Below, in pieces: positions 26,944 to 40,169 of a stretch of 64,000 bases of DNA (position 1 is its first letter; each line of letters opens with the position of its first letter). This DNA is from Clostridia bacterium. GTDB lineage: Bacteria; Bacillota; Clostridia; Christensenellales; CAG-138. The translations under genes and the position numbers were made by a program. The stretch covers positions 35,167-99,166 of the forward strand of contig JAFWJN010000043.1 of assembly GCA_017514685.1 (NCBI GenBank), written 5' to 3'. The notes below the pieces were generated by a model. The model made no database searches. It was not told where the DNA came from and saw only the letters and a list, made by a program, of their open reading frames with translations.

Positions 26944-27017
26944 TGGAGGCACCACCCGGAATCGAACCGGGGATAAGGGTTTTGCAGACCCGTGCCTTAC
27001 CGCTTGGCCATGGTGCC
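26944..27017 (-). tRNA. tRNA-Cys (GCA)
   Basis: The reverse complement folds as a cloverleaf: acceptor GGCACCA/TGGTGCC, anticodon loop CTGCAAA, T-loop TTCGATT, encoded CCA. Confidence 0.85.
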
Positions 27018-27043
27018 GTATCCGGAAAAATCCGGATAAAAAA

Positions 27044-27119
27044 TGGAGCGGGAAACGGGGCTCGAACCCGCCACCTCAGCCTTGGCAAGGCTGCGCTCTA
27101 CCAAATGAGCTATTCCCGC
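27044..27119 (-). tRNA. tRNA-Gly (GCC)
   Basis: Acceptor GCGGGAA/TTCCCGC, anticodon loop TTGCCAA, T-loop TTCGAGC, encoded CCA. Confidence 0.85.
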
Positions 27120-27123
27120 AACA

Positions 27124-27199
27124 TGGTGCCTCAGAGTGGACTTGAACCACCGACACAGGGATTTTCAGTCCCTTGCTCTACCAACTGAGCTACCGAGGC
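27124..27199 (-). tRNA. tRNA-Phe (GAA)
   Basis: GCCTCGGTAGCTCAGTTGGTAGAGC..., anticodon loop CTGAAAA, T-loop TTCAAGT, encoded CCA. Confidence 0.85.
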
Positions 27200-27203
27200 A
27201 AAA

Positions 27204-27280
27204 TGGCGACCCGAAGGGGGCTCGAACCCCTGACCTCCAGCGTGACAGGCTGGCGTACTAACCAACTGTACTACCGGGCC
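27204..27280 (-). tRNA. tRNA-Asp (GTC)
   Basis: GGCCCGGTAGTACAGTTGGTTAGTAC..., anticodon loop CTGTCAC, T-loop TTCGAGC, encoded CCA. Confidence 0.85.
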
Positions 27281-27289
27281 GTAAAAACC

Positions 27290-27365
27290 TGGTGGGAACA
27301 ACAGGGCTCGAACCTGTGACCCCCTGCTTGTAAGGCAGATGCTCTCCCAGCTGAGCTATGCTCCC
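27290..27365 (-). tRNA. tRNA-Val (TAC)
   Basis: GGGAGCATAGCTCAGCTGGGAGAGC..., anticodon loop CTTACAA, T-loop TTCGAGC, encoded CCA. Confidence 0.85.
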
Positions 27366-27601: not shown

Positions 27602-29026
27602 GTGCAGTTGAAAGTGTCACATCGTGAAAAAACGAAGCGTATGGTACAGCTGGCAGTTTTGCTTGCGCTTGAAATTATCATAGCTTTCACTCCGCTTGGA
27701 ACGATCCAGGTCGGAACGATCGCAGCGACTCTCGGACATATCCCTGTTATTATTGCTGCTGTTGTTATGGGAACTGCGGAAGGCGCATTTATGGGCTTTG
27801 TCTTCGGTCTTTTGAGCTTTATCTATTGGACGTTTGTACAGCCGGCCAATCCGACGGCATTTATGTTTACTCCTTTTTGCCAGTTGGGTGAGATCCGCGG
27901 AAGTGCCTGGAGCCTTCTGATCTGTTTTCTTCCCAGGATTCTGATCGGTGTGGTCGCAGGTGAAGTTTGCAAACTGGTTAAGAGAAAAATCGGGAAAGAC
28001 GGGCTGGCTTACGGTCTGGCCGGTGCAGCAGGAAGCGCTGTCACAACGATCCTTGTATTGGGTATGACATATCTTCTGATCGGACGGCAGTATGTTGCGG
28101 CAGTGTTCAGCGGCGGCGCAGCTCCTGAGAATGCTATGGCATGGCTGCTTGCGGCAATCGGGACTGTAATTCTGACAAACGGGATCCCGGAGTTGGTGGT
28201 CGGAGTCCTGATGGCAATCGGCGTGGGATATGCCCTCGTGCCGCGGACCCGTGTTCTCGGGATTGACATCGGCTCTTCCATGACAAAAGTGGCATTGCTT
28301 CGGGGAGAGAAAATTGAGTGGACGGAACGCTTCGAAAACACGGAAGATCTGGAAAAGAAACTGAATGATCTGCCTGTCGGTAAAGTGAAAAAAATCTGTG
28401 TGACAGGTGTCGGAGCATCTTTCATTAACGGTAATCTGTGTGGTATTCCGACGGAGCGCGTAGAAGAGTTTCGAGCACTCGGCAGAGGAGCGGCGCTTGT
28501 TGCTCATAAACGGAACCTGATCGTCTGCAGCGTCGGAACCGGAACCGCATTTGTCCGGGTTACTCCCTTTACGGTATTTCATATCGGGGGGTCCGGAGTC
28601 GGCGGAGGGATGCTGAAAGGCCTTTCGGAAAAACTGTTCGGAACATATGATGCACAGCACATCGCGGAACTTGCAAAAGCAGGTTCTTTGAATGAGGTGG
28701 ATCTTACGCTTGCGGATGTATGCAAGGGAACGATCTCCAATCTGAACGAAGAAACAACCGTTGCAAATCTGGCAAAAGCCGGAACCGCGTCGGATGAAGC
28801 TCTGGCACATGGCCTTTACAACGTGATTTTCCAGAGTATAGGCGTTATGGCTGCGTTTGCTGCAAAGCATCATTTTGTGAAAACCATTTTCGTGTGCGGA
28901 ACCATTCTGGAACACGGAAATCTGGCAAAAGAAGCACTGGACGAGGTAGCGGCACTTCACCATGTGAAATTCGTGATCTCAGAGAAGGCAGCATATATCA
29001 CGGCGATCGGCGCTGCACTTCAATAA
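27602..29026 (+). CDS. coaW: Fusion protein: ECF-transporter S-component-like membrane domain + type II pantothenate kinase (CoaW-like)
   Basis: AGGAGGA SD before the GTG at 27602. Residues 1-~210 contain ~6 TM helices resembling ECF substrate-capture components. From ~aa 215 the sequence VLGIDIGSSMTKVA...VGTGTAF...GGSGVGGGMLKGL...AAYITAIGAAL parallels S. aureus-type CoaW (GIDAGGTLTK, VGTGTS, GGIGTGGG, AFSGAIGAL). Confidence 0.7.
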   Translation: MQLKVSHREKTKRMVQLAVLLALEIIIAFTPLGTIQVGTIAATLGHIPVIIAAVVMGTAEGAFMGFVFGLLSFIYWTFVQPANPTAFMFTPFCQLGEIRGSAWSLLICFLPRILIGVVAGEVCKLVKRKIGKDGLAYGLAGAAGSAVTTILVLGMTYLLIGRQYVAAVFSGGAAPENAMAWLLAAIGTVILTNGIPELVVGVLMAIGVGYALVPRTRVLGIDIGSSMTKVALLRGEKIEWTERFENTEDLEKKLNDLPVGKVKKICVTGVGASFINGNLCGIPTERVEEFRALGRGAALVAHKRNLIVCSVGTGTAFVRVTPFTVFHIGGSGVGGGMLKGLSEKLFGTYDAQHIAELAKAGSLNEVDLTLADVCKGTISNLNEETTVANLAKAGTASDEALAHGLYNVIFQSIGVMAAFAAKHHFVKTIFVCGTILEHGNLAKEALDEVAALHHVKFVISEKAAYITAIGAALQ

Positions 29027-29123: not shown

Positions 29124-29200
29124 GCTGATGTAGCTCAGTTGGTAGAGCGCGTCATTGGTAATGACGAGGTTCATGGGTCCGACTCCCATCATCAGCTCCA
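29124..29200 (+). tRNA. tRNA-Thr (GGT), stand-alone, with unusual T-loop
   Basis: Acceptor GCTGATG/CATCAGC, D-arm GCTCAGTTGGTAGAGC, anticodon loop TTGGTAA, encoded CCA. The T-arm is ATGGG-TCCGACT-CCCAT (TCC instead of TTC) and the variable loop appears to be 6 nt. Own promoter TTGCAT-N17-TATAAT at 29085-29113. Confidence 0.7.
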
Positions 29201-29202
29201 GA

Positions 29203-29234
29203 GAGTCCCGTAAAGCGGGACTCTTTCGTTTTTT
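29203..29234 (+). terminator. Rho-independent terminator after tRNA-Thr
   Basis: GAGTCCCG-TAAAG-CGGGACTC followed by TTTCGTTTTTT. Confidence 0.8.
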
Positions 29235-29328: not shown

Positions 29329-29342
29329 TTTGTATTTACAAA
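29329..29342. promoter_or_regulatory. Perfect 14-bp palindrome upstream of rnfC (candidate operator)
   Basis: TTTGTA-TT-TACAAA. A second inverted repeat, ACCATAGT-GGTAA-ACTATGGT, lies at 29377-29397. Confidence 0.3.
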
Positions 29343-29461
29343 CAGTAGAATTCCTGCTAAACTTTGATATAGATATACCATAGTGGTAAACTATGGTTAT
29401 AGTATGCCGTTTACAGCATATAGAAGATGAACGGAAGTATTCTGAAGGAGGGAAAGGAACT

Positions 29462-30814
29462 GTGAAAGACACGTTTCGCGGCGGTGTTCATCCGAGAGGT
29501 CATAAAGAACTGAGTCGGGAAATGCCGCTGCGCGCTTATGAAGCGACCGGGGAAATGGTCTTTCCGCTTGCGCAGCATATCGGAAAACCTGCCAAAGCGA
29601 TCGTGAAAAAGGGCGATCCGGTTGTGGCAGGGCAGTGTATTGCGGAAGCGGACGGATTTGTTTCGGCGAACATCATCTGTTCTTGTTCCGGCAAGGTCAA
29701 GGCAGTAGAGAAGCGCCGTACGATTTCCGGTGCAATGCAGGAATGTATTGTGGTGGAAAATGACGGACAGTACACGCAGAAAGACCCGTATACGGAAAAA
29801 GAGGATATTGAAAAACTCTCAAATGACGAGATCATTGCCCGCGTGAAAGATGCGGGGATCATCGGACTTGGGGGTGCTGGATTCCCGACGCACGTCAAGC
29901 TGATGCCGAAGAAACCTCTGGGCATCAAATACCTGATTGCAAACGGTGCGGAGTGTGAGCCTTACATCACCTGCAACGATCAGCTGATGCGCAGTTCCGC
30001 CGATGAGATCATTGAGGGTATGGAAATTGTGCTTCGCCTTTTCCCAAATGCCGATGGTATTGTTGCAATCGAGACAAACAAACCGGAAGCGATTGCTTCC
30101 ATGCAGGCGGCCGCTGTCGGGCATGAGAGGATTCATGTGGTAGCGCTGCGTACCAAGTATCCACAGGGCGGTGAACGCAGTCTGATCAAATCAATCGCAG
30201 GCATTGATTATCCTATCACAAAGCTTCCGGCGGATGTGGGATGTATTGTGGATAACGTCGGAACGCTGTACGCAATCGGCCGCGCGGTACTTTATCGTGA
30301 ACCTCTGTTCCGGCACGTGCTGACCGTTACAGGCGAAGCGCTCGTGCGTCCCTGCAACTTCATCGTGCGTGACGGTACGAGTTTTGCGGAACTGATTGAA
30401 GCCGCAGGAGACGTCCGGGAAGGGAAAGAAGCCGTAAAGGTCATTTCCGGCGGCCCGATGATGGGAATCGCGGTGAGCTCGACGGAGGTTCCCATTACCA
30501 AGACAACAAACGCGATTACAGTGCTCCCGGAAGATGCGGTTGAAAAAGCGGACAGTTATATGACGGCATGTCTGCACTGCGGGCGCTGCACGACCGTTTG
30601 CCCGAGCGGACTGATGCCGCAGATGATGGCGGATGCCATTATAGCCGGGGATTACGAGAGATATGAGAACAAGCTGTACGGGCTTGACTGTGTCGCATGC
30701 GGTTCCTGTACTTATATCTGTCCCGCAAAGCGTCCGCTGACTCAGGCATTTAAGAAAACAAAGGCGGAGATTATGGCCCGCAAACGTGCGGCGGCAGCAG
30801 GAGGGAACAAATGA
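29462..30814 (+). CDS. rnfC: Rnf complex subunit C
   Basis: GAAGGAGGGAAAGGA SD then a GTG at 29462 giving (M)KDTFRGGVHP, the canonical RnfC N-terminus. GLGGAGFPTHVK NAD/FMN-site motif. Two 4Fe-4S motifs, CLHCGRCTTVCP and CVACGSCTYICP. Confidence 0.9.
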   Translation: MKDTFRGGVHPRGHKELSREMPLRAYEATGEMVFPLAQHIGKPAKAIVKKGDPVVAGQCIAEADGFVSANIICSCSGKVKAVEKRRTISGAMQECIVVENDGQYTQKDPYTEKEDIEKLSNDEIIARVKDAGIIGLGGAGFPTHVKLMPKKPLGIKYLIANGAECEPYITCNDQLMRSSADEIIEGMEIVLRLFPNADGIVAIETNKPEAIASMQAAAVGHERIHVVALRTKYPQGGERSLIKSIAGIDYPITKLPADVGCIVDNVGTLYAIGRAVLYREPLFRHVLTVTGEALVRPCNFIVRDGTSFAELIEAAGDVREGKEAVKVISGGPMMGIAVSSTEVPITKTTNAITVLPEDAVEKADSYMTACLHCGRCTTVCPSGLMPQMMADAIIAGDYERYENKLYGLDCVACGSCTYICPAKRPLTQAFKKTKAEIMARKRAAAAGGNK

Positions 30815-32379
30815 GCACATTGCATCTTTCCCACGGCCCGCATATCCGTGATCGCTGGACTACTTCATTTATCATGCATACCGTATTGCTGGCGCTTCTT
30901 CCGACCGCTGTTGTCGGCGTCATCGTAAACGGATGGCATTCTCTGTTCATCATTCTCGCATCGATCGTTGCGGCTGTCGGTTCGGAATGGCTGTTCTGCG
31001 CCATTACAAAGCGCAAGCTCTCGATTCTTGACGGATCCGCGGCAGTAACGGGCATGATGCTTGCGCTGTCGCTATCCCCGACCGTTCCGCTGTACATCCC
31101 GATTCTCGGCTCGATGTTTGCGATTCTGGTCGTCAAATGCGCTTTCGGCGGTCTCGGCAAGAACTTCGTGAACCCGGCGCTTGCAGCAAGATGCTTCCTT
31201 ATGATTTCATTTGGAAATGCGATGACCAAGTTCCCTCTTGGCGTGGATGGTATTTCTTCCGCGACTCCGGTAGCGGATCTTCTTGCGGGAAGAACAGTCA
31301 ATATCACGCAGATGTTCCTGGGAACGACAAACGGCGTTATCGGCAGTTCCGTTCTGGCGATGCTGATCGGCGGGTTGATTCTGTGGGGACTTGACATCAT
31401 CCATGGCGAGATCTGTTTCTCCGTTCTCGGAGGATTTACCCTTGTAGTCGGACTTTTCGGAGGACAGGGATTTGATCCCAAATTCCTGCTGGCAAACATC
31501 TGCGGCGGCGGTGTCGTGATGGGCGCGTTCTTCATGGCGACCGACTATACAACTTCTCCTGTCAGCCGGCTCGGCCAGCTGGTATACGGCTGCCTGATCG
31601 GCGTCTTGGGCGCGCTGTTCCGTGTCTTCGGAAAGAGCGCGGATTCTTTCAGTTATTCGGTTATCATCGCAAACCTGTTTACGCCGCTGATCGATATGTA
31701 TATCATCCCGAAACCGTATGCATACCGTCCCGCTGCGATCAAACTTGCAAACGGTGAAAAGAAAACCCCGCTGCTGCAGCGGATTCCAAAGCCTGTAATT
31801 GCATTGACGCTGATCACATTGCTGGCGGGTGTTGCGCTTTCAGGCGTGTTCTCCATGACAAAGGATACGATTGAAGAGCAGAAGCTTGCTGCGAATATGG
31901 CGTCCTATCAGGAAGTGTGTCCGGATGCGGTTTCCTTCAAGCCGAGTGAGGCTGCTAAGGAAGCCATTGCGAACCTGAATGGCGGCGTTTACGGAACCAA
32001 ATACGGAAAAGCGTATATCAACGAGGCGGTTGTCGGTGTAGATGCGAACGGACAGGTTGTCGGATATGTCATCAGCGCAACAAGCGGCAATGGCTATGAA
32101 GGCAACATTAAGCTTTCCATCGGCATTACCCCGGACGGCACGGTAAAGGGCATCGCGTTTACAGAGTTGAATGAAACTCCGGGAAAAGGCTCACTGGCTG
32201 CGGAGCCCGGTTTTATCAATCAGTTTGACAACCGTTCTGTTACCCAGTTTGTACTGAACGGAAGCGGAAGCGACGGAATTGATGCAATCTCAGGCGCGAC
32301 AATTACTTCAACTGCGGTTGTCAATGCCGTCAATGCCGGACTGGACTTCTTCCACAGCGTCATGCAGGGAGGGAACTGA
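30811..32379 (+). CDS. rnfD: Rnf complex subunits D and G fused in one polypeptide
   Basis: Residues 1-~320 are a polytopic RnfD/NqrB-like part with the flavinylation-site context MATDYTTSPVS. From ~aa 325 come a TM anchor (PVIALTLITLLAGVALSGVF) and an RnfG/NqrC FMN-binding domain ending in DAISGATITSTAV (S-G-A-T flavinylation motif). The ATGA overlaps the rnfC stop. Confidence 0.85.
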   Translation: MSTLHLSHGPHIRDRWTTSFIMHTVLLALLPTAVVGVIVNGWHSLFIILASIVAAVGSEWLFCAITKRKLSILDGSAAVTGMMLALSLSPTVPLYIPILGSMFAILVVKCAFGGLGKNFVNPALAARCFLMISFGNAMTKFPLGVDGISSATPVADLLAGRTVNITQMFLGTTNGVIGSSVLAMLIGGLILWGLDIIHGEICFSVLGGFTLVVGLFGGQGFDPKFLLANICGGGVVMGAFFMATDYTTSPVSRLGQLVYGCLIGVLGALFRVFGKSADSFSYSVIIANLFTPLIDMYIIPKPYAYRPAAIKLANGEKKTPLLQRIPKPVIALTLITLLAGVALSGVFSMTKDTIEEQKLAANMASYQEVCPDAVSFKPSEAAKEAIANLNGGVYGTKYGKAYINEAVVGVDANGQVVGYVISATSGNGYEGNIKLSIGITPDGTVKGIAFTELNETPGKGSLAAEPGFINQFDNRSVTQFVLNGSGSDGIDAISGATITSTAVVNAVNAGLDFFHSVMQGGN

Positions 32380-32381
32380 TT

Positions 32382-33083
32382 ATGAACAAATATGTGGAAC
32401 GGCTGTATAACGGCCTGATCAAAGAGAACCCGACGTTGATCCTGATGCTGGGCATGTGCCCGACGCTTGCTGTCTCCACGACCGCAATGAACGGTGTCGG
32501 CATGGGTATTTCATCGACAGCGGTCCTGATCCTTTCCAACTATGTGATCTCTCTGCTGAGAAAGGTCATCCCGGATGAGGTTCGTCTTCCCGCTTATATC
32601 GTTATCGTCGCATCCCTTGTTACGGTAACGGAACTCTTAATTGAGGCTTACCTTCCTGCTCTTTACAGTGCGCTGGGAATCTATATTCCTCTGATCGTCG
32701 TCAACTGCATCATCCTTGGAAGAGCGGAAGCTTACGCAAATAAGCATACACCCGGTCTTGCCGTCATGGACGGACTTGGAATGGGACTTGGTTTTACTGT
32801 GGCATTGACTCTGGCAGGTCTTGTCCGTGAAGTGCTCGGCAGCGGTTCAGCCTTCGGTTACAACTTTATTCAGTATTTGCCCGGTGTTGAGCCGATCGGC
32901 ATTTTCATTCAGCCTCCGGGAGCGTTCCTTGTAATTGCGTTGTTTATCGCAATCATGAATGCAATCGGAATCAAGACGCGGCAGCGTAAACTTGTTGAAA
33001 ACGATGGCTGTGACGGCTGCTGTGCAACCTGTGCTATGCCGTGTGAAAATGTCGGCGACAAAGCAGAGGAGGAAGCAAGATGA
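32382..33083 (+). CDS. rnfE: Rnf complex subunit E with Cys-rich C-terminal extension
   Basis: RnfE/NqrD pattern (LGMCPTLAVS...GIYIPLIVVNCIILGRAEA). An extra tail, NDGCDGCCATCAMPCENVGDKAEEEAR, spans nt ~32995-33083. Confidence 0.85.
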   Translation: MNKYVERLYNGLIKENPTLILMLGMCPTLAVSTTAMNGVGMGISSTAVLILSNYVISLLRKVIPDEVRLPAYIVIVASLVTVTELLIEAYLPALYSALGIYIPLIVVNCIILGRAEAYANKHTPGLAVMDGLGMGLGFTVALTLAGLVREVLGSGSAFGYNFIQYLPGVEPIGIFIQPPGAFLVIALFIAIMNAIGIKTRQRKLVENDGCDGCCATCAMPCENVGDKAEEEAR

Positions 33084-33658
33084 AAAACTTGATTCTTATT
33101 ATTCTCGGCGGAGCATTGATCAACAATGTGGTGCTTAACCAATTTTTAGGCATTTGTTCGTTTCTCGGTGTGTCCAAGCAGATGAAAGCCTCCGCAAGTC
33201 TCGGAGGAGCTGTCATTTTTGTTATGACAATTGCTTCTGCGGTAGCAAGCCTGTTATATGATTATGTATTGAAGCCGCTGGGCATCGATTTCATGAAAAC
33301 CATCGTTTTCATTCTGGTCATTGCAGCACTGGTGCAGATCGTGGAAATGTTCCTGAAAAAAACTTCACCCGCTGTTTATAAGTCGCTTGGCATTTATTTG
33401 CCACTGATCACGACGAACTGCGCGGTGCTGGGCGTTGCACTGACAAACGTTCAGAATGAGTACAATTTCATTGAAAGCGTTCTTGCCGGTTTCGGAACAG
33501 CAATCGGTTTCACGCTTGCCATCATTCTTCTGGCCAGTATCCGTTCCCGTATCCGGGAAGAGGATCTGCCGGCACCCTTGCGCGGCGCCCCAATCGTACT
33601 GATTTCGGCAGCGCTTATGTCAATTGCGTTCATGGGCTTTTCGGGCCTTGCGTTCTGA
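33080..33658 (+). CDS. rnfA: Rnf complex subunit A
   Basis: RnfA/NqrE pattern (NNVVLNQFLGICSFLGVS...GIYLPLITTNCAVLGVAL). Confidence 0.9.
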   Translation: MKNLILIILGGALINNVVLNQFLGICSFLGVSKQMKASASLGGAVIFVMTIASAVASLLYDYVLKPLGIDFMKTIVFILVIAALVQIVEMFLKKTSPAVYKSLGIYLPLITTNCAVLGVALTNVQNEYNFIESVLAGFGTAIGFTLAIILLASIRSRIREEDLPAPLRGAPIVLISAALMSIAFMGFSGLAF

Positions 33659-33670
33659 GGGAGGTGCAGG

Positions 33671-34495
33671 ATGGATATTATTCTGATTACCACCGCAGTC
33701 ATTACGGTGATCGGCATCGTCGTTGGAGCCGGTCTGGTTTTCACGGGAAAGAAATTCTATGTGAAGGTCGATGAACGTGAAGCGGCAGTCCGTGAGTGTC
33801 TGCCGGGAAACAACTGCGGAGCCTGCGGCTTTGCGGGCTGTGATGCTGCGGCTGCGGCAATCGTCGCAGGAGATGCTCCTGTCAATGTCTGCCCGGTTGG
33901 CGGCTCGGCAGTTGCACAGAGAATCGGCGGTATAATGGGCGAAAACGCGGAAGCGGTTGAGCGCAAGGTTGCGTTCGTACGCTGCAAAGGAACCTGTGAA
34001 GTCACAAAGAATCAGGGGGAATATATCGGCATCCGTGATTGCCGTACCGCGGTGCTGTCGGGTATGAATCTGACGGATTGTGATTACGGCTGCATCGGAC
34101 TGGGCTCCTGTGTTGAGGCTTGTCCGCAGAATGCAATTTCCGTGGTGGACGGAGTCGCTGTTGTGAATGAAAAACGCTGTGTTGGATGCGGTCTCTGTGC
34201 AAAAGCCTGCCCGAAGAACCTGATCGAACTTGTTCCGGAGAGCAAACAGATCCGCGTTCAGTGCTCCAATAAGGACAAAGGTCCTCAGGTGAAAAAAGTG
34301 TGCCAGGCTGGTTGCATCGGATGCAGCCTTTGCGTCAGGCAGTGTGAATCCGGAGCGATTACAGTCAATACCAATCTGGCCCATATCAACTACGAAGCAT
34401 GTACACAGTGCGGTAAATGCGCTGAGAAGTGCCCGGCAAAAGTCATTTGCGTTCCCGCTCCGGAGGAGCCGGTGAGCGAAAATGTACCGGCATAA
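33671..34495 (+). CDS. rnfB: Rnf complex subunit B (polyferredoxin type)
   Basis: N-terminal TM anchor, then the CGACGFAGC cluster motif. Several 4Fe-4S ferredoxin motifs follow (CIGLGSCVEACP, CVGCGLCAKACP, CIGCSLCVRQC, CTQCGKCAEKCP). Confidence 0.9.
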   Translation: MDIILITTAVITVIGIVVGAGLVFTGKKFYVKVDEREAAVRECLPGNNCGACGFAGCDAAAAAIVAGDAPVNVCPVGGSAVAQRIGGIMGENAEAVERKVAFVRCKGTCEVTKNQGEYIGIRDCRTAVLSGMNLTDCDYGCIGLGSCVEACPQNAISVVDGVAVVNEKRCVGCGLCAKACPKNLIELVPESKQIRVQCSNKDKGPQVKKVCQAGCIGCSLCVRQCESGAITVNTNLAHINYEACTQCGKCAEKCPAKVICVPAPEEPVSENVPA

Positions 34496-34507
34496 CGGAG
34501 GATAGTT

Positions 34508-35815
34508 ATGGAGAAAAGAAATCAGGCGGCAAAGCTGATTGTCAGCGGAATCATTGTTGCTCTGGCGATTTTATTCCTTGCCGGAATCATCGGGGGAAAA
34601 GATATCTTATACCATCTTAAGGACCGCAGTTCAATCGGCCCGCTGACCCGTTCGGACATCAAGTATCAGGAAGTGGCGGCGCCGAAAGCAACGAGCAAGG
34701 ACGGTACGATCAACGCTGCTGACTGGGCTGCTGCTTATCCGTATATCGTCACGACGATGGGTGATAATGCCAAGAATACCTATGTCATTGATTATCTGGA
34801 ACAGGATCCGTATCTGACAACGATCTATGAAGGGTTCGGATTCGCAAAAGACTATGGCAGCGCACGGGGACATGCGTATACATTGGAAGATGTTGGAAAG
34901 ACACTTCGTCCGCATGCAAACGCCAACTGCCTGACATGCAAAACACCTAACTTCACAAAGCTGGTCAATGATCAGGGCGTCGGGGTTTATACGATGTCAT
35001 TTGATGAAGTCATGGCTCAGATGGAAGAAGCGGTCAGCTGCTATACCTGCCATGGAAATGAAGCAGGCAATAAGGGAAAGATCGAGATTACGCATTCCTA
35101 TGTGAATAAAGCACTGGGAAGCGCCATGAACACGATCGATCCGGCAACGCTTTCCTGCGGTCAGTGCCATATCGAGTATTATTTCACGCCGACAGATAAA
35201 GAAACGATGATGCCTTATTCCGACGTTTCCACAATGACGCCGGATGCGATTCTGGCTTTCTATGATTCCATGGTTCTGCCGGATGGCACAGTCGGTTTCG
35301 CTGACTGGGTCCAGCCGAGTACAGGGGTAAGACTGCTGAAGGCACAGCATCCTGAAATGGAGACTTATCTGCTGGGCAAGCATGCAAGCTCTCTGAATTG
35401 CGCAGACTGCCATATGGCAATTGAACAGGCAGAGGACGGGACCGTTTATCACAGCCACATGATCGTCAGTCCGCTGGAAAATCAGACGCTGCTGTCGAAT
35501 TGCGCTGTTTGCCATGGAGATACCGATATGGTGAATATGGTGCGGCGCCTGCAGGAGCGGGTCGTAGAACGTGAGACAGTTGTCGGCAATGCGCTGGCGG
35601 AATTCCATAATGCCCTCGCAGCTGCAGTGGAAGCGGGAGAAATGCCGGAAGACCAGCTTGAAACCGTTCGCGGAATCTATCGTACGGCACAGTGGTACTT
35701 TGACTTCTGCTATGTGGAAAATGCGGAGGGTGCGCACAATTCCGATCTGGCATTCTATTGCCTGGATACGGCTGAGGCAAAGATCACAGAAGGCATGCAG
35801 CTCCTTGGACAATAA
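34508..35815 (+). CDS. nrfA: Pentahaem cytochrome c nitrite reductase NrfA, membrane-anchored
   Basis: Five haem motifs in NrfA order: CLTCK (the Lys-ligated active-site haem, nt 34928-34942), CYTCH, CGQCH(IEYYF), CADCH and CAVCH. N-terminal anchor LIVSGIIVALAILFLAGIIGG. Starts 12 nt after rnfB, with GGAGGA in the gap. Confidence 0.85.
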   Translation: MEKRNQAAKLIVSGIIVALAILFLAGIIGGKDILYHLKDRSSIGPLTRSDIKYQEVAAPKATSKDGTINAADWAAAYPYIVTTMGDNAKNTYVIDYLEQDPYLTTIYEGFGFAKDYGSARGHAYTLEDVGKTLRPHANANCLTCKTPNFTKLVNDQGVGVYTMSFDEVMAQMEEAVSCYTCHGNEAGNKGKIEITHSYVNKALGSAMNTIDPATLSCGQCHIEYYFTPTDKETMMPYSDVSTMTPDAILAFYDSMVLPDGTVGFADWVQPSTGVRLLKAQHPEMETYLLGKHASSLNCADCHMAIEQAEDGTVYHSHMIVSPLENQTLLSNCAVCHGDTDMVNMVRRLQERVVERETVVGNALAEFHNALAAAVEAGEMPEDQLETVRGIYRTAQWYFDFCYVENAEGAHNSDLAFYCLDTAEAKITEGMQLLGQ

Positions 35816-35839
35816 TTGATACAGATTATGAATGAAACG

Positions 35840-35877
35840 GGTGGGAACGGCAGAGCGTCCTTTCCCACCATCTTTTT
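35840..35877 (+). terminator. Rho-independent terminator after nrfA
   Basis: GGTGGGAA...TTCCCACC stem followed by ATCTTTTT. Confidence 0.6.
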
Positions 35878-35886
35878 AGCAGGAAA

Positions 35887-37200
35887 ATGGATGCATTGAA
35901 GAAGATTTTTAAATTCCTGTCCTCTATGACATTTGCAATCATATTGCTTGTCGTATTAGCCGCCGCCTGTGCAGCGGGGAGTTTTATCACACAGGGACAG
36001 ACATATGAATGGTATGCTGAAGCCTACTCGGAAAGCGCTGCAGCCTGGATTATGGCGCTGCGTCTGAATGATGCGTTTCATAGTGTATGGTTTGTTGTAA
36101 TTGCTTTGTTCCTGTGCGGAAATCTGCTTCTTTGCAATGTAATCCGGTTAAAATCCCTGATTCAAAAATCCCGTCAGGCAGGGGAACCGAAAAAGGAACC
36201 CGAACAGACTGCGGACGCAATGGCACATCAAATCAGCGATCCCGTTCAGGTGTTTGAAAGGCTCCGGATGCCGAAGCCTAAAAGTCTGGAACAGGACGGA
36301 AAGCAAATTCTTTTCTCCGTAAAAAACCGCGCCGGAATATGGGGCGCCTGGGTGTGTCATCTCGGAATTCTGCTGCTGATTTTAGGATTCGGACTCGGAC
36401 AGATGACAAAAGCGGAATATACGGTCTACGGAGTTCCCGGACAAACGCTTCTCATCGGTGAGACAGGACTGTTCCTTCAGATAGATGACTTTCAGGTTAA
36501 TCTGAGAGAAGATGATACCGTGGAACAATATACAGCGGACATCACGGTTTTCCGCGCGCCGCAGGGTTCAACTGCGGAACCGGATTCTGAACATGCTGTC
36601 ATTTCCGTCAATCATCCGGGGCGGATGTTCGGCATGACATTTTATCAGAATGCAACAGGGTGGGCTGCCAGGGTCACGGTCGAGAAAAGCGGAAGCCCTA
36701 TCCAGAGCGAGATCGTCTGTGCGGGGGAGTATCTGCCGGTTGTGGATCTGAATGATCTGGTCATCGTGTTCAATGCGTTTTATCCGGATTATGTTTCCGT
36801 TCCGGGATCGATGCCGATGAGTGCATCCTCCAAACTGAACAATCCGGGATATCTGTACTCAGTCTATTATAAAGGAAACATCATCGGAATGAATGTTCTT
36901 CTGGAAGGGGAACAGGTCACGATCGATGATTACACGGTTACTTTCACGGAACCGCAGAATTATACGCTCATCCAGATCAAGAAGGATTCTTTCACCTGGC
37001 TGGCGTTTATGGGCGGAATCACAACCATGATCGGACTGTTCTTTGCTTTTTATCTGCAGCTGCAGGCGGTATGTGCTGTGCGGGATGAAGATGAGACCTG
37101 GACGGTATATGGTTTCTGCAATAAGGGAGGAAAACTTTACGAGGATCTTTTCTCCAGAGCGGTACAGAACACGGAGAAGGAAGCAGGGAGGAAAGAATAA
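35887..37200 (+). CDS. resB: Cytochrome c biogenesis protein ResB/Ccs1 (system II)
   Basis: The N-terminus (LSSMTFAIILLVVLAAACAAGSFI) and overall topology (TMs at both ends, large extracytoplasmic loop) are typical of ResB. Paired with ccsA. Confidence 0.75.
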   Translation: MDALKKIFKFLSSMTFAIILLVVLAAACAAGSFITQGQTYEWYAEAYSESAAAWIMALRLNDAFHSVWFVVIALFLCGNLLLCNVIRLKSLIQKSRQAGEPKKEPEQTADAMAHQISDPVQVFERLRMPKPKSLEQDGKQILFSVKNRAGIWGAWVCHLGILLLILGFGLGQMTKAEYTVYGVPGQTLLIGETGLFLQIDDFQVNLREDDTVEQYTADITVFRAPQGSTAEPDSEHAVISVNHPGRMFGMTFYQNATGWAARVTVEKSGSPIQSEIVCAGEYLPVVDLNDLVIVFNAFYPDYVSVPGSMPMSASSKLNNPGYLYSVYYKGNIIGMNVLLEGEQVTIDDYTVTFTEPQNYTLIQIKKDSFTWLAFMGGITTMIGLFFAFYLQLQAVCAVRDEDETWTVYGFCNKGGKLYEDLFSRAVQNTEKEAGRKE

Positions 37201-37202
37201 GC

Positions 37203-38018
37203 ATGCTTCAGGTAGAAAATACACTGTTTACGATTGTCATGCTGCTGTATTTTGCGGCGATGATTCTGTTCTTTGTTTATATTGCAATCAAGAAAGACCC
37301 TGTCGCAAAAATCGCGATCGGTCTTCAGCTCGCAGGACTTGTTCTGCATACAGCGGCTCTGATCTGCCGGGGAATCGGCGCAGGAAGGCTGCCCTTTACA
37401 AATCAGTATGAATTTGCGACTTCCTTTGCATGGGGACTTTGCCTTGTCAGTCTGATCTTTTTGCTGAAATTCAAATTCCCGGTGCTTGGCGCTTTTTCGG
37501 CTCCGCTGATATTTCTCATTATCGGATACGCGGCAATGCAGTCAAAGGATGTACATTCCCTGATGCCGGCGCTTCAAAGCAACTGGCTGGGATTTCATGT
37601 TTCCACCGCAATTATTGCATACGGCGCTTTCGGCGTGTCCTTTGTTCTTTCCATTATTTTTCTGCTTCGTGACAAAGCAAAAGAAGGCAGCTTCTGGGAT
37701 CTTCATATTCCAAGCAGAGAAAAACTGGATCTGATCAGTTACAGAAGCGTTGCGCTGGGACTTCTCTTTCTGACCTTTACGATCATTACAGGTGCGATCT
37801 GGGCGGAGCGTGCATGGGGAAGCTACTGGTCATGGGATCCAAAAGAAACGTGGTCTTTGGTAACCTGGATCATTTACATGGTTTATCTGCATCTTAGAAT
37901 CAGGAGAGGATGGCAGGGCAAGGCGGCTGCGATCTTTGCAGTTGCCGGATTTATCTGCGTAATGTTTACTTACATCGGCGTGAATACGTTTTTACCGGGT
38001 ATTCATAGTTATAAATAA
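37203..38018 (+). CDS. ccsA: Cytochrome c biogenesis protein CcsA/ResC (system II haem handling)
   Basis: [23 protein letters not shown] matches the WWD haem-binding motif. Polytopic. Confidence 0.85.
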
Positions 38019-38032
38019 GAAGGGGAAATAAA

Positions 38033-39100
38033 ATGAAACGGACTTGTGCGATGATAGCTGCATTGCTGTTCATTGTGCTGATGATTTTGACAGGATGCAC
38101 GGGAAACGGACAGGATCAGAACCCTGAACCCCCGTCGCTTACAATGGAACCGACGGAAATACCGGCAGAGACACCGACACCGGTGCCGACTCCGACTTCA
38201 ACGCCGACTCCGACGCCGACACCGACTCCAACGCCTACACCCACTCCGACACCGTCGCCGACGCCGACTCCGACGCCGGTACCGACCCCGACCCCGCACA
38301 TCATCGAAGGAGAACCGGTTATTCTGGAAAACTCCTATCAGAGCGAGAATTTCGGGATTTTTGTGAAAACGGTCGAAGATAACAGCAAGACATTCTCTGA
38401 ATATGAACTTGTGTATCATATCGCAGACATCTATGTGAAGGATGTGACTTTGATCAGAACAGGTTTTTCGTTCGGGACATGGAAGAACTTCAATCTGGCA
38501 TCCGTAACCGAAATCGCGGAAGCGAATCATGCCGTTCTGGCACTGTCGGGTGATTACATGCGTGCCCGGGGAAAGGGATTCGCTTTGCGCAACGGAGAAT
38601 TATATCGTAAATATACCGATCCCGACCGGGATGTCTGCGTCATTTACCGGGATGGGACGATGGTGACGATCGATGCCAAGAAAGTTCCGAAAAACGGAAA
38701 AGGCATCATTGATGATCCGGAAGTATGGCAGGTCCTCGGATTCGGACCAATGCTTCTGGAAAAAGACGGAACGGCGAAAACAAAGTTTAATTCAAAAGTC
38801 AAAGCGTACAATCCGCGCTCCGTTATCGGCTACTATGAACCGGGACATTACTGCTTCCTGTTTGTGGAAGGACGCCAGATGGGCTATTCCCAGGGCATCC
38901 GGATGGAACAGCTTGCAAAACTCTGCCAGTCACTGGGAATGAAGCAGGCGTTCAATCTGGATGGCGGAAAAACCGCAGCGATGTACTTCAATGGCAATCT
39001 GCTGAATCATGATGATTCTTTTCCGAGAGATGTCCATGACGTCCTGTACATAGCGGAACCGGTAAGCGAAGAATCCGGAACTGATGAGTCAGTAGAATAA
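38033..39100 (+). CDS. Lipoprotein with Pro/Thr linker and phosphodiester glycosidase (NAGPA/DUF2233-like) domain
   Basis: Lipobox LTGC. PTPTPTP linker. C-terminal segments ALSGDY...GFGPMLL...NPRSVIGY...[15 protein letters not shown] resemble the phosphodiester glycosidase family. Confidence 0.6.
38171..38296 (+). repeat. Coding low-complexity (ACN-CCG)n tract encoding a (Thr/Ser-Pro)n linker
   Basis: Translates as [40 protein letters not shown]. Confidence 0.9.
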
Positions 39101-39155: not shown

Positions 39156-40169
39156 TCAGAAAAGATCATGAAAGCATGCGAGATTCTCCGCCGCTGCTTT
39201 TCGCTCTCCGCGGTCAATCTCCCGGATGATTTCGGTAATCCGGTCATTGACCGGCGTTGGAACATGATTTTTTCTGCCGTACTCCGTAATGATCGCATTG
39301 AAGGATTCGATCTCGCACGGTTTCCCTTTTTCAATATCCTGCAGCATGGACGGGTAGATTGCAGAGTGTTTTCGCATGGCCATAGGGATGAAAAGCATGA
39401 GCATTTTTTCGCGGAGCCAGGTTTGACACGGGAACAGACTGGCGATATTGATTCCCTGAATCGGAGCAAAAGAGATGCCTTCCGCCTTTGCAACCGCCGC
39501 GCATTCGTTCATACAGGCGATTACGCCTTTCCGTGTGCGGAATCCTTTTGCAACCTCTCCGTAAGTTTTCCCGGTGACCGTTCCGAAGCCGGAAAAAGCG
39601 GTGTTGATCAGAAGCTTTGTCCAACGGACGCCGGAAAGATTCTCCTCAAGAATCACGGGACACATCTTCTCCAGAAGGTCTTTCACGGCAAGGATCTTCT
39701 CTTCCGGGACGGAATTCATGCGTCCCATATGAAAAGAAAGTCTCTTTGGATCGCTCGTCATAGCGGCGACACCGGGGCTGATGAGCGTTGCACCCCATTC
39801 CACGACACAGCCGATCGTCCGGGAAGCGCCTGCGATTTTTGCGATTCCAGGTTCAGGCAGACCGTTCTGAAACGTTACGATCGCTCCGTCTTCCTTCAGG
39901 TAATCCATCAGGAATGCAACCACTTCCGGGTTTCGCTGCTGCTTTGTCATCAGAAGGATCAGATCATACTTGCCTTCCATTTCCTCCGGAAGCAGCGCAT
40001 GCACCGGAACGGTAAAGGAGACGGTGCCTGTAATGCGGGCACCGTTTGTTTTTAATGCCTGTATATGCTTTCTGTTTCGGTTTACCAGATCCACCGGTTC
40101 TCCGGCTTTCGTCAGATACGCGCCGAGCACGGTCCCGAGTGAGCCTGCTCCGTAGATTACGGTTCTCAT
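39156..40169 (-). CDS. panE: 2-dehydropantoate 2-reductase (ketopantoate reductase) family
   Basis: N-terminal Rossmann motif IYGAGSLGTVLGAYL and the overall ApbA/PanE pattern. Confidence 0.7.
   Translation of the reverse strand: MRTVIYGAGSLGTVLGAYLTKAGEPVDLVNRNRKHIQALKTNGARITGTVSFTVPVHALLPEEMEGKYDLILLMTKQQRNPEVVAFLMDYLKEDGAIVTFQNGLPEPGIAKIAGASRTIGCVVEWGATLISPGVAAMTSDPKRLSFHMGRMNSVPEEKILAVKDLLEKMCPVILEENLSGVRWTKLLINTAFSGFGTVTGKTYGEVAKGFRTRKGVIACMNECAAVAKAEGISFAPIQGINIASLFPCQTWLREKMLMLFIPMAMRKHSAIYPSMLQDIEKGKPCEIESFNAIITEYGRKNHVPTPVNDRITEIIREIDRGERKAAAENLACFHDLF

Follow-up and report, generated by a model that had tools for sequence, protein, structure and literature searches.

The 64-kb stretch of DNA analyzed here (the window) belongs to a metagenome-assembled genome (MAG) of a rumen "Clostridia bacterium" and contains, between positions 29462 and 38018, a complete set of rnf genes followed directly by nrfA, which encodes a pentahaem nitrite reductase (MBR3179448.1), and by the cytochrome c maturation genes resB and ccsA. 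We conclude that these eight genes probably form a self-contained module for a quinone-independent, membrane-bound ferredoxin/NADH:nitrite oxidoreductase, in which electrons would reach NrfA via the outward-facing flavin of RnfG. A preliminary description of the region had raised the idea that Rnf feeds NrfA through this flavin without NrfH or quinones, and the support found for it here comes from comparative genomics, namely gene adjacency, natural gene fusions, and the absence of a second multihaem open reading frame (ORF). The association of rnf with nrfA itself is confirmed, far beyond chance.

Gene content of the rnf-nrfA module

All of the ORFs claimed earlier for this region were recovered at the same positions, each with the expected Pfam family, and the layout then given, a complete Rnf set, 12 nt, NrfA, and resB/ccsA, was confirmed throughout. 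The features of the module are as follows.

29462..30814, plus strand: rnfC (Pfam RnfC_N, 1.1e-34; Complex1_51K, 4.5e-50; SLBB; Fer4)
30811..32379, plus strand: fused rnfD-rnfG, 522 aa (NQR2_RnfD_RnfE, 6.8e-91; FMN_bind, 5.3e-18)
32382..33083, plus strand: rnfE, 233 aa (Pfam Rnf-Nqr, 5.8e-64)
33080..33658, plus strand: rnfA, membrane subunit (Pfam Rnf-Nqr, 4.4e-61)
33671..34495, plus strand: rnfB (Pfam FeS, 1.1e-12; several Fer4; transmembrane segment at residues 1-29)
34496..34507, plus strand: 12-nt spacer CGGAGGATAGTT between the rnfB TAA and the nrfA ATG, in which GGAGGA is the nrfA ribosome-binding site
34508..35815, plus strand: nrfA, 435 aa (Pfam Cytochrom_C552, PF02335, 5.1e-73)
35887..37200, plus strand: resB (ccsB), system II cytochrome c maturation (Pfam ResB, 2.8e-47)
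37203..38018, plus strand: ccsA (resC), system II haem-handling subunit (Cytochrom_C_asm, 2e-57; W-rich motif)

By Pfam and PDB matches, all six Rnf subunit types (C, D, G, E, A, and B) are encoded together, with D and G fused. RnfC is predicted to be the cytoplasmic subunit that carries the NADH/FMN-binding domain and Fe-S clusters, and RnfB is predicted to consist of an N-terminal anchor helix and cytoplasmic ferredoxin-type Fe-S domains, at which reduced ferredoxin would enter. Both components by which system II maturation is recognized are present, a ResB-family protein and a CcsA with the W-rich haem-handling motif. The GTG start of rnfC at 29462 is preceded by GGAGGG and agrees with the N termini of homologues (MKDTFRGG); a longer rnfC ORF, beginning at an ATG at 29393, found no support among homologues.

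The stop codon of rnfB is in frame with the start codon of nrfA (34493-34510), and the spacer between them would read RRIV. Since the two codons are in frame and 12 nt apart, a single stop-loss or readthrough event would give an RnfB-NrfA fusion. The gap had been described as 12 nt with GGAGGA and without a terminator, and this reading stands: a simple consensus scan found no terminator-like site in the spacer and no plus-strand promoter-like site between 31706 and 35583.

Conservation and spread of the module

An NrfA scan with one genome per species returned 148 relatives, and the best 80 loci (59 to 80% NrfA identity) were compared. Almost all of them are MAGs from the ruminant gut with the labels Clostridia, Lachnospiraceae, Oscillospiraceae, Ruminococcaceae, or Eubacteriaceae; 11 of the 80 are labelled Spirochaetales or Sphaerochaetaceae. 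Among these best 80 of 148, rnfB lies 5' of nrfA in 76 of the 77 loci with usable upstream sequence. The intervals between the two genes comprise 66 gaps of -14 to +49 nt (median, 12), 2 in-frame fusions, and 8 cases with insertions, and the exact 12-nt spacing of the window is common to many related loci. The hypothesis of the preliminary description had staked itself on rnfB-nrfA adjacency being more than the peculiarity of one genome; the count across genomes, 76 of 77 informative loci, shows that it is not unique, and the hypothesis thus passes its own comparative test.

The conservation extends to the rest of the module. Searches by tblastn with the window proteins recovered the order rnfC-DG-E-A-B-nrfA-resB-ccsA wherever the contig was long enough, and all four loci reached via the fused RnfDG protein (65 to 72% identity) continue as rnfE-A-B-nrfA-resB-ccsA. 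The rnfC gene is kept in at least 58 loci, RnfA identity across related loci is 77 to 96%, and resB lies 3' of nrfA in nearly all of them, with a gap of -104 to 1110 nt (median, 73). When ORFs were clustered over the 80 loci, only the eight module genes recurred, and the next flanking family was present in 8 loci. Other candidates for recurrent neighbours (apbE, nap or nar, a nitrite transporter, and regulators) were rejected, as none recurs in the 80 loci and none is found in the window; the 64-kb window also lacks men genes and any nitrate reductase gene. Since no family outside the module recurs, no nitrate reductase is consistently linked to it.

Identities were compared between phyla in the 16 loci for which all five compared genes were recovered in crude gene calls. 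Spirochaete- and Firmicute-labelled modules are 65% (RnfC) and 68% (NrfA) identical, and Firmicute-labelled modules are 66% and 70% identical among themselves. That the modules are as similar between phyla as within Firmicutes fits transfer of the whole module, rnf included, and its genes seem to have crossed between phyla together, with the caveat that the reliability of MAG labels depends on the binning. Distance correlations between Rnf and NrfA proteins in the same 16 loci were moderate (Pearson, 0.44 to 0.71) and are not used as evidence of co-evolution.

NrfA and the search for a haem donor

NrfA carries the haem motif CLTCK at residue 141 and CxxCH motifs at residues 178, 217, 298, and 332, and these five haem sites are conserved in 77 aligned homologues. 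The protein matches solved NrfA chains at 1e-38 to 1e-44 (3ubr, 1.2e-44; 1gu6, 1.1e-40), and its RGH, HIEYYF, and KAQHPE segments align with the catalytic segments of the enzymes from Escherichia coli (1gu6) and Shewanella oneidensis (3ubr). Within the clade, the catalytic Arg, Tyr, and His and the residues of the Ca site are invariant or nearly so. With its haem and catalytic motifs intact, the protein looks functional and is, as the catalytic subunit, a bona fide NrfA. A single N-terminal hydrophobic segment (approximately residues 10-30; Kyte-Doolittle mean, 3.0) is preceded by MEKRNQAAK, a combination that we interpret as fitting a signal anchor better than a cleavable signal peptide. By prediction, an N-terminal anchor of the uncleaved type holds the protein, with its catalytic domain outside the membrane. 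This agrees with the earlier reading of a pentahaem NrfA with a CxxCK haem and an N-terminal membrane anchor.

The hallmark of the NrfHA and NrfABCD systems is that NrfH or NrfB is encoded with nrfA, and neither was found in the 64-kb window or within approximately 10 kb in the 80 loci. The nrfA gene is the only ORF of the 64-kb window with at least two CxxCH motifs, four others carrying a single motif, and in each of the 80 loci (80/80) it is again the only such ORF within approximately 10 kb. The proposal that nrfA has no second multihaem or nrfH/nrfB gene beside it therefore holds for the window and for its relatives alike.

Natural fusions of NrfA

In several genomes, RnfB and NrfA form a single polypeptide: P0053 (705 aa), P0284, P0287, P0463 (698 aa; found on 18 contigs), L055, P0288 and P0289 (721 aa), and L079, the last from a Sphaerochaetaceae MAG. 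The junctions fall into the groups P0053/P0284/P0463/L055, P0288/P0289, and L079, representing at least three lineages, and because they differ among the three groups, the fusion arose more than once. The L055 fusion corresponds to a TAA-to-AAA change relative to the L008 spacer, and fused and unfused forms of NrfA fall in one 90% cluster. The topology is consistent, as a cytoplasmic RnfB C terminus that leads into the NrfA helix would place NrfA outside. Another protein, P0285, is a tandem NrfA-NrfA encoded in an rnf operon (L087).

An exhaustive search over representatives of clusters at 50% identity yielded 774 NrfA relatives. Among the closest of these, long proteins are mostly fusions of FMN_bind and NrfA; FMN_bind is the domain type of RnfG, NqrC, and PplA. 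At least 13 cluster representatives are such fusions, with NrfA identities of 45 to 64% for the twelve full-length ones.

FMN_bind::NrfA fusions with Pfam or motif support: P0290/P0314, P0313, P0315, P0317, P0318, P0319, P0320
FMN_bind::NrfA fusions with Pfam or motif support, continued: P0323, P0326, P0327, P0328, P0331, P0419

Each fusion has one to several FMN_bind domains, located N- or C-terminal to NrfA, and ApbE motifs (IEALSGATVTS, IDALTGATVTS, VDAITGATITS) are present in 12 of the 13, with none in P0313 by the pattern used. P0290 (L085) and P0313 (L090), the two FMN_bind fusions with enough flanking sequence, are both encoded directly 3' of rnfCDGEAB. In L085, a NusG_II gene follows the FMN_bind-NrfA-NrfA gene. 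Three of the fusions (P0317, P0315, and P0419) contain as many as five flavinylation motifs, of the two types xxALSGATVTS and PDAITGATLKF, and resemble the "multi-flavinylated proteins" of Meheust et al., here attached to a haem enzyme.

Genes for secreted FMN_bind+FAD_binding_2 reductases (fumarate/urocanate-reductase type) lie between rnfB and nrfA in three Lachnospiraceae loci.

L045, 6501-9970: FMN_bind+FAD_binding_2 reductase locus
L060, 3245-5811: FMN_bind+FAD_binding_2 reductase locus
L063, 7119-9865: FMN_bind+FAD_binding_2 reductase locus

Other flavin-fed extracytoplasmic reductases thus use the same operon slot. The L045 locus also contains tatA and tatC, and L060 has a small NusG_II-domain gene, which a downstream ORF in L063 resembles. 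As far as can be predicted, the fusions show that NrfA belongs beside RnfB and that FMN_bind domains would be natural redox partners of this NrfA clade.

Features of the Rnf subunits

RnfD and RnfG form one polypeptide of 513 to 539 aa in 65 of 65 complete homologues, whereas the solved Rnf complexes 7zc6, 9eri, and 8ahx have the two as separate chains. The fused protein runs from the RnfD membrane domain through a K/R-rich linker and the RnfG anchor helix (residues 325-350) to FMN_bind, with the junction at approximately nt 31720-31860; by the positive-inside rule, the linker and helix would keep the FMN domain outside. Flavinylation motifs occur in the RnfD part (SSAT, residue 149) and in the RnfG part (IDAISGATITS, with SGAT at residue 494), and across the 65 homologues the ATP of the former is invariant and the G, A, and T of the latter are highly conserved. 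The ApbE motifs expected of RnfD and RnfG are thus both in place, as predicted flavinylation sites.

RnfE has a C-terminal tail of approximately 33 extra residues (32982-33083) with the four-Cys motif CDGCCATCAMPC at approximately nt 33009-33044. A C-x3-C-x2-C-x3-5-C tail is present in all RnfE proteins of the related loci, and the tail is missing from RnfE in the two solved complexes of the clostridial type, where the chain has 201 aa (7zc6) or 196 aa (9eri). The KTRQRK that precedes it suggests that the tail is cytoplasmic, and its four Cys residues could bind a metal or an Fe-S cluster.

Proposed electron route and alternatives

The flavin of RnfG and NqrC is located on the outer face of the membrane, midway along the route of the electrons (PMC8238504, PMC10979944). 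For the module, we propose that reduced ferredoxin would give electrons to the Fe-S clusters of RnfB, that NADH could do so via RnfC, and that the electrons would cross the membrane within Rnf to the covalent FMN of the outward RnfG domain, which is fused to RnfD. Some or all of them would then exit at this flavin, not return to NAD+, and enter the haem chain of NrfA, which would turn nitrite into ammonium at its Lys-ligated haem, outside the membrane. NrfA would be kept by the complex through its own N-terminal helix, beside the RnfB anchor, and its haems would be attached outside the membrane by ResB and CcsA; system II maturation puts c-type haem proteins on that side. The sequences show gene content, motifs, predicted topology, a conserved gene order, the two kinds of fusion, and the lack of a nearby NrfH or NrfB gene; the physical complex, the direct flavin-to-haem step from RnfG to NrfA, the choice of cytoplasmic donor, and any retention of ion pumping are inferred. 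We lean towards an Rnf-NrfA supercomplex, in which a complete bacterial Rnf would export electrons and its outward covalent FMN would directly drive an anchored NrfA, and possibly other extracytoplasmic reductases.

The potential drop from ferredoxin to nitrite is expected to be large, and net energy conservation would hinge on retained ion pumping. Because exported electrons and proton consumption on the outside oppose the membrane potential, the module may be mainly an electron sink or nitrite detoxifier and not a strong energy conserver; a sink or detoxification role seems at least as likely as strong energy conservation.

Several points weigh against the proposed Rnf-to-NrfA route. Genes for NrfH, CymA, NapC-type proteins, menaquinone synthesis, or a separate FMN_bind lipoprotein may lie beyond the searched stretches; the loci were ranked by similarity and cover the best 80 of 148 relatives, and the evidence all comes from MAGs. 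In L066, nrfA-resB is found behind dnaX-ybaB with no adjacent rnf, and nrfA is likewise apart from rnf in L086 (53% identity) and L092 (45% identity), where a short contig carries an FMN_bind::NrfA fusion gene with resB-ccsA; the NrfA clade is therefore not obligatorily encoded beside rnf. The FMN_bind domains that the L085 and L090 NrfA proteins carry themselves could also mean that RnfG alone is perhaps not an optimal direct donor.

It is possible, though we think it unlikely, that the main substrate or role of the enzyme is something other than respiratory nitrite ammonification, such as surface detoxification of nitrite, NO, hydroxylamine, sulfite, or peroxide. NrfA enzymes also act on NO, hydroxylamine, and sulfite, and outward electron export combined with proton use on the outside would not obviously be energy conserving. 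The missing link to nitrate reductase, in the window and across the loci, points the same way, but the residues of nitrite ammonification (CxxCK, Arg, Tyr, His, and the Ca site) are all conserved, and nitrite recurs as a rumen metabolite under nitrate feeding (PMC6776011). Detoxification would concern the physiological role and not the electron route, and it is compatible with an Rnf-fed NrfA.

A further alternative, which we consider doubtful, is that the Rnf of the module feeds NrfA but works in one direction only, dedicated to exporting electrons from ferredoxin and/or NADH to outside acceptors, and no longer serves as a reversible ferredoxin:NAD+ ion pump, with a housekeeping Rnf, if any, encoded elsewhere. 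RnfC retains its full Complex1_51K NADH/FMN domain, the six Rnf subunits are intact, and there is no second rnf cluster in the 64-kb window or in the other 79 loci, all of which argue for an ordinary Rnf; the RnfD-G fusion, the four-Cys tail of RnfE, and the NrfA partner, on the other hand, differ from the solved Rnf complexes. A specialized function would also fit the travel of rnf with nrfA across phyla, the second, divergent RnfC-like gene and the ApbE gene beside the module in L041, and the presence, in three loci, of other secreted reductases at the operon position between rnfB and nrfA.

Simple co-location and co-expression without direct transfer, with the NrfA donor encoded elsewhere (an NrfH/CymA-type protein or a flavinylated lipoprotein chain) and Rnf co-regulated only to rebalance ferredoxin/NADH when nitrite is the sink, is improbable: the searches covered the window and approximately 10 kb around the loci, so that distant donor genes are possible, L066, L086, and L092 have nrfA without adjacent rnf, and the NrfA of Shewanella uses an unlinked donor, CymA, but co-regulation alone would hardly account for RnfB-NrfA polypeptides in at least three lineages, no multihaem partner is encoded within approximately 10 kb in the 80 loci, FMN_bind::NrfA fusions indicate a flavin donor and not a haem donor, and the module brings its own maturation genes and seems to have been passed between phyla as a whole, a transfer unlikely to work if it relied on host quinones and NrfH.

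Boundaries and transcription signals

Three features outside the coding sequences bear on the transcription of the module.

29124..29226, plus strand: tRNA gene (29124-29197; Rfam tRNA, 65.8 bits), then a strong terminator-like hairpin (29200-29226; 12-bp stem, T-run)
29335..29392, plus strand: two overlapping sigma-70-like matches, TTTACA-17-TAAACT and TTGATA-17-TAAACT (consensus only; both TG-extended)
35840..35877, plus strand: hairpin between nrfA and resB, an 8-bp stem and then AUCUUUUU (-16.5 kcal/mol; z = -1.06 versus shuffles)

The tRNA gene and its hairpin mark the upstream boundary of the rnf-nrfA unit, and the promoter-like matches sit in an AT-rich region 5' of rnfC. Between them and the rnfC ribosome-binding site is a perfect 8-bp inverted repeat, ACCATAGTggtaaACTATGGT (29377-29397). 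This repeat is not conserved 5' of rnfC in 56 other loci, and a shared operator at this position was rejected, as the inverted repeats from 57 upstream regions gave no common motif. The hairpin after nrfA had been called a terminator; a hairpin with a U-run does exist there, but its strength as a terminator is modest. It is not listed by the consensus terminator scan, and since its z score of -1.06 is no better than that of shuffled sequence, we regard it as a weak or partial terminator at best and place no firm operon boundary there.

Neighbouring genes

The module is flanked by unrelated housekeeping genes, including PanE, Tex, and Fur with ZnuABC. On one side, a 474-aa ORF (27602-29026) combines an ECF-transporter S-component with a Fumble (type II pantothenate kinase) domain, and on the opposite side of the module is a ketopantoate reductase gene (39156-40169). 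Directly 3' of ccsA, at 38033-39100, a secreted or lipoprotein-like product combines a NAGPA (phosphodiester glycosidase) domain with a long Pro-Thr repeat (PTPTPTPT...) in front of it; this gene is not conserved beside the module in other loci. A row of five tRNA genes occupies 26947-27365 (minus strand), and the single tRNA gene at 29124-29197 (plus strand) is directly 5' of the rnf promoter region. The tRNA genes beside this mobile-looking module may mark an integration site.

Among the 80 loci, apbE is found in L041 only, as is a second RnfC-like gene. The region from 1 to 3352 of L041 (minus strand), divergent from the module, contains the gene for an ApbE lipoprotein (Pfam, 9.4e-61) and one for a secreted 358-aa protein with internal repeats and no Pfam match; the RnfC-like gene (33% identity) runs past the end of the stretch. 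These divergent genes may form a further system of the Rnf-like or flavinylation type in that genome. Two or three small ORFs that by eye resemble DUF4160/DUF2442-type pairs separate rnfB from nrfA in L037 (8596-9201), L058 (9332-9911), and L062 (9029-9955). In L083, L084, and L088, desulfoferrodoxin and rubrerythrin genes lie 3' of ccsA, past one gene with no Pfam match, and may reflect a shared stress or redox context.

Comparison with known systems and implications

To our knowledge, every NrfA with a biochemically established donor draws electrons from the quinol pool via a haem protein (NrfH, NrfBCD, or CymA). The catalytic subunit of NrfHA (Wolinella succinogenes and Desulfovibrio vulgaris) and of NrfABCD (E. 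coli) is homologous to the NrfA described here, with five haem sites and an extracytoplasmic position. Unlike in those systems, NrfA here has its own anchor, its gene comes last among the structural genes of an rnf operon, and in some cases the protein is joined to RnfB or FMN_bind; its donor is predicted to be a flavin and not a haem, with no quinol needed.

The nearest precedent is the Rnf-MmcA system. In Methanosarcina acetivorans, the Rnf complex has a multihaem cytochrome, MmcA, whose gene belongs to the rnf operon (PMC11024163, PMC12174285); this heptahaem, OTR-related protein carries Rnf electrons to methanophenazine or extracellular acceptors (PMC11024163). Common to both is a multihaem c-type cytochrome in the rnf operon that is thought to take electrons on the outer face; whereas MmcA is an archaeal carrier encoded by the first gene, NrfA is a pentahaem, helix-anchored terminal reductase, bacterial, and encoded after rnfB. 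We regard the resemblance as an analogy of mechanism and not as membership. Bacterial Rnf complexes are said to lack an MmcA-like subunit (preprint 10.1101/2022.07.20.500911).

All six subunits are shared with the canonical Rnf complexes of Clostridium tetanomorphum (7zc6), Acetobacterium woodii (9eri), and Azotobacter vinelandii (8ahx), RnfE and RnfD of the module matching 7zc6 at 1.2e-69 and 1.7e-63; the fused RnfD-G, the four-Cys tail of RnfE, and a seventh, haem-containing partner after RnfB set the module apart. In ApbE-flavinylated systems (Meheust et al. 2021, PMC8238504; Listeria PplA-type; NosR, PceC), an outward flavinylated FMN_bind domain feeds an extracytoplasmic reductase. The genes of the module follow this pattern, with an RnfG FMN_bind domain and its [S/T]GA[S/T] motif encoded in the same operon as NrfA, but here a complete Rnf is the proposed transmembrane donor and a multihaem cytochrome the acceptor. 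The flavinylation surveys count complete Rnf as a closed, characterised system and never mention NrfA (PMC8238504).

In Natranaerofaba carboxydovora, a Gram-positive, quinone-free bacterium, a membrane-anchored NrfA is encoded in a nap-nrfA locus without NrfH, and the authors left its donor open (PMC8359318); that nrfA lies in a napAGHDF locus, without reported fusions, and not in an rnf operon as here. Sporomusa ovata has a standard NrfH1A1 and a separate rnf, and a 2025 review of Rnf/Nqr cites only Rnf-MmcA as a cytochrome case and never mentions nitrite or NrfA. Rumen studies assign nrfA to Selenomonas, Wolinella, Prevotella, and Bacteroides. The preliminary description knew of no Rnf-NrfA coupling, and we too found no description of such a coupling or of FMN_bind-NrfA fusions in the searchable full-text literature, which excludes subscription-only papers.

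If the proposed route is correct, an NrfA fed by a flavin and coupled to Rnf would represent a novel mode of dissimilatory nitrite reduction to ammonium, and there would be a clade of "flavin-wired" NrfA proteins in which flavinylated FMN_bind domains take the place of the tetrahaem NrfH. It would also extend bacterial Rnf from a closed ferredoxin:NAD+ loop to an electron output, a role so far proposed for the archaeal Rnf-MmcA alone. The natural RnfB-NrfA and FMN_bind-NrfA fusions are ready-made constructs for biochemical and cryo-EM tests. The module is found mainly in ruminant-gut genomes; in the rumen, dietary nitrate is given to lower methane and nitrite build-up is the toxic side effect, and the carriers of the module are not counted among rumen nitrite reducers in PMC6776011 and PMC12918512. 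Fermenters that lack quinones and NrfH would gain ferredoxin/NADH-dependent nitrite ammonification, possibly coupled to an ion pump, and this would explain how cytochrome-poor, quinone-free Clostridia and Sphaerochaetaceae use nitrite.

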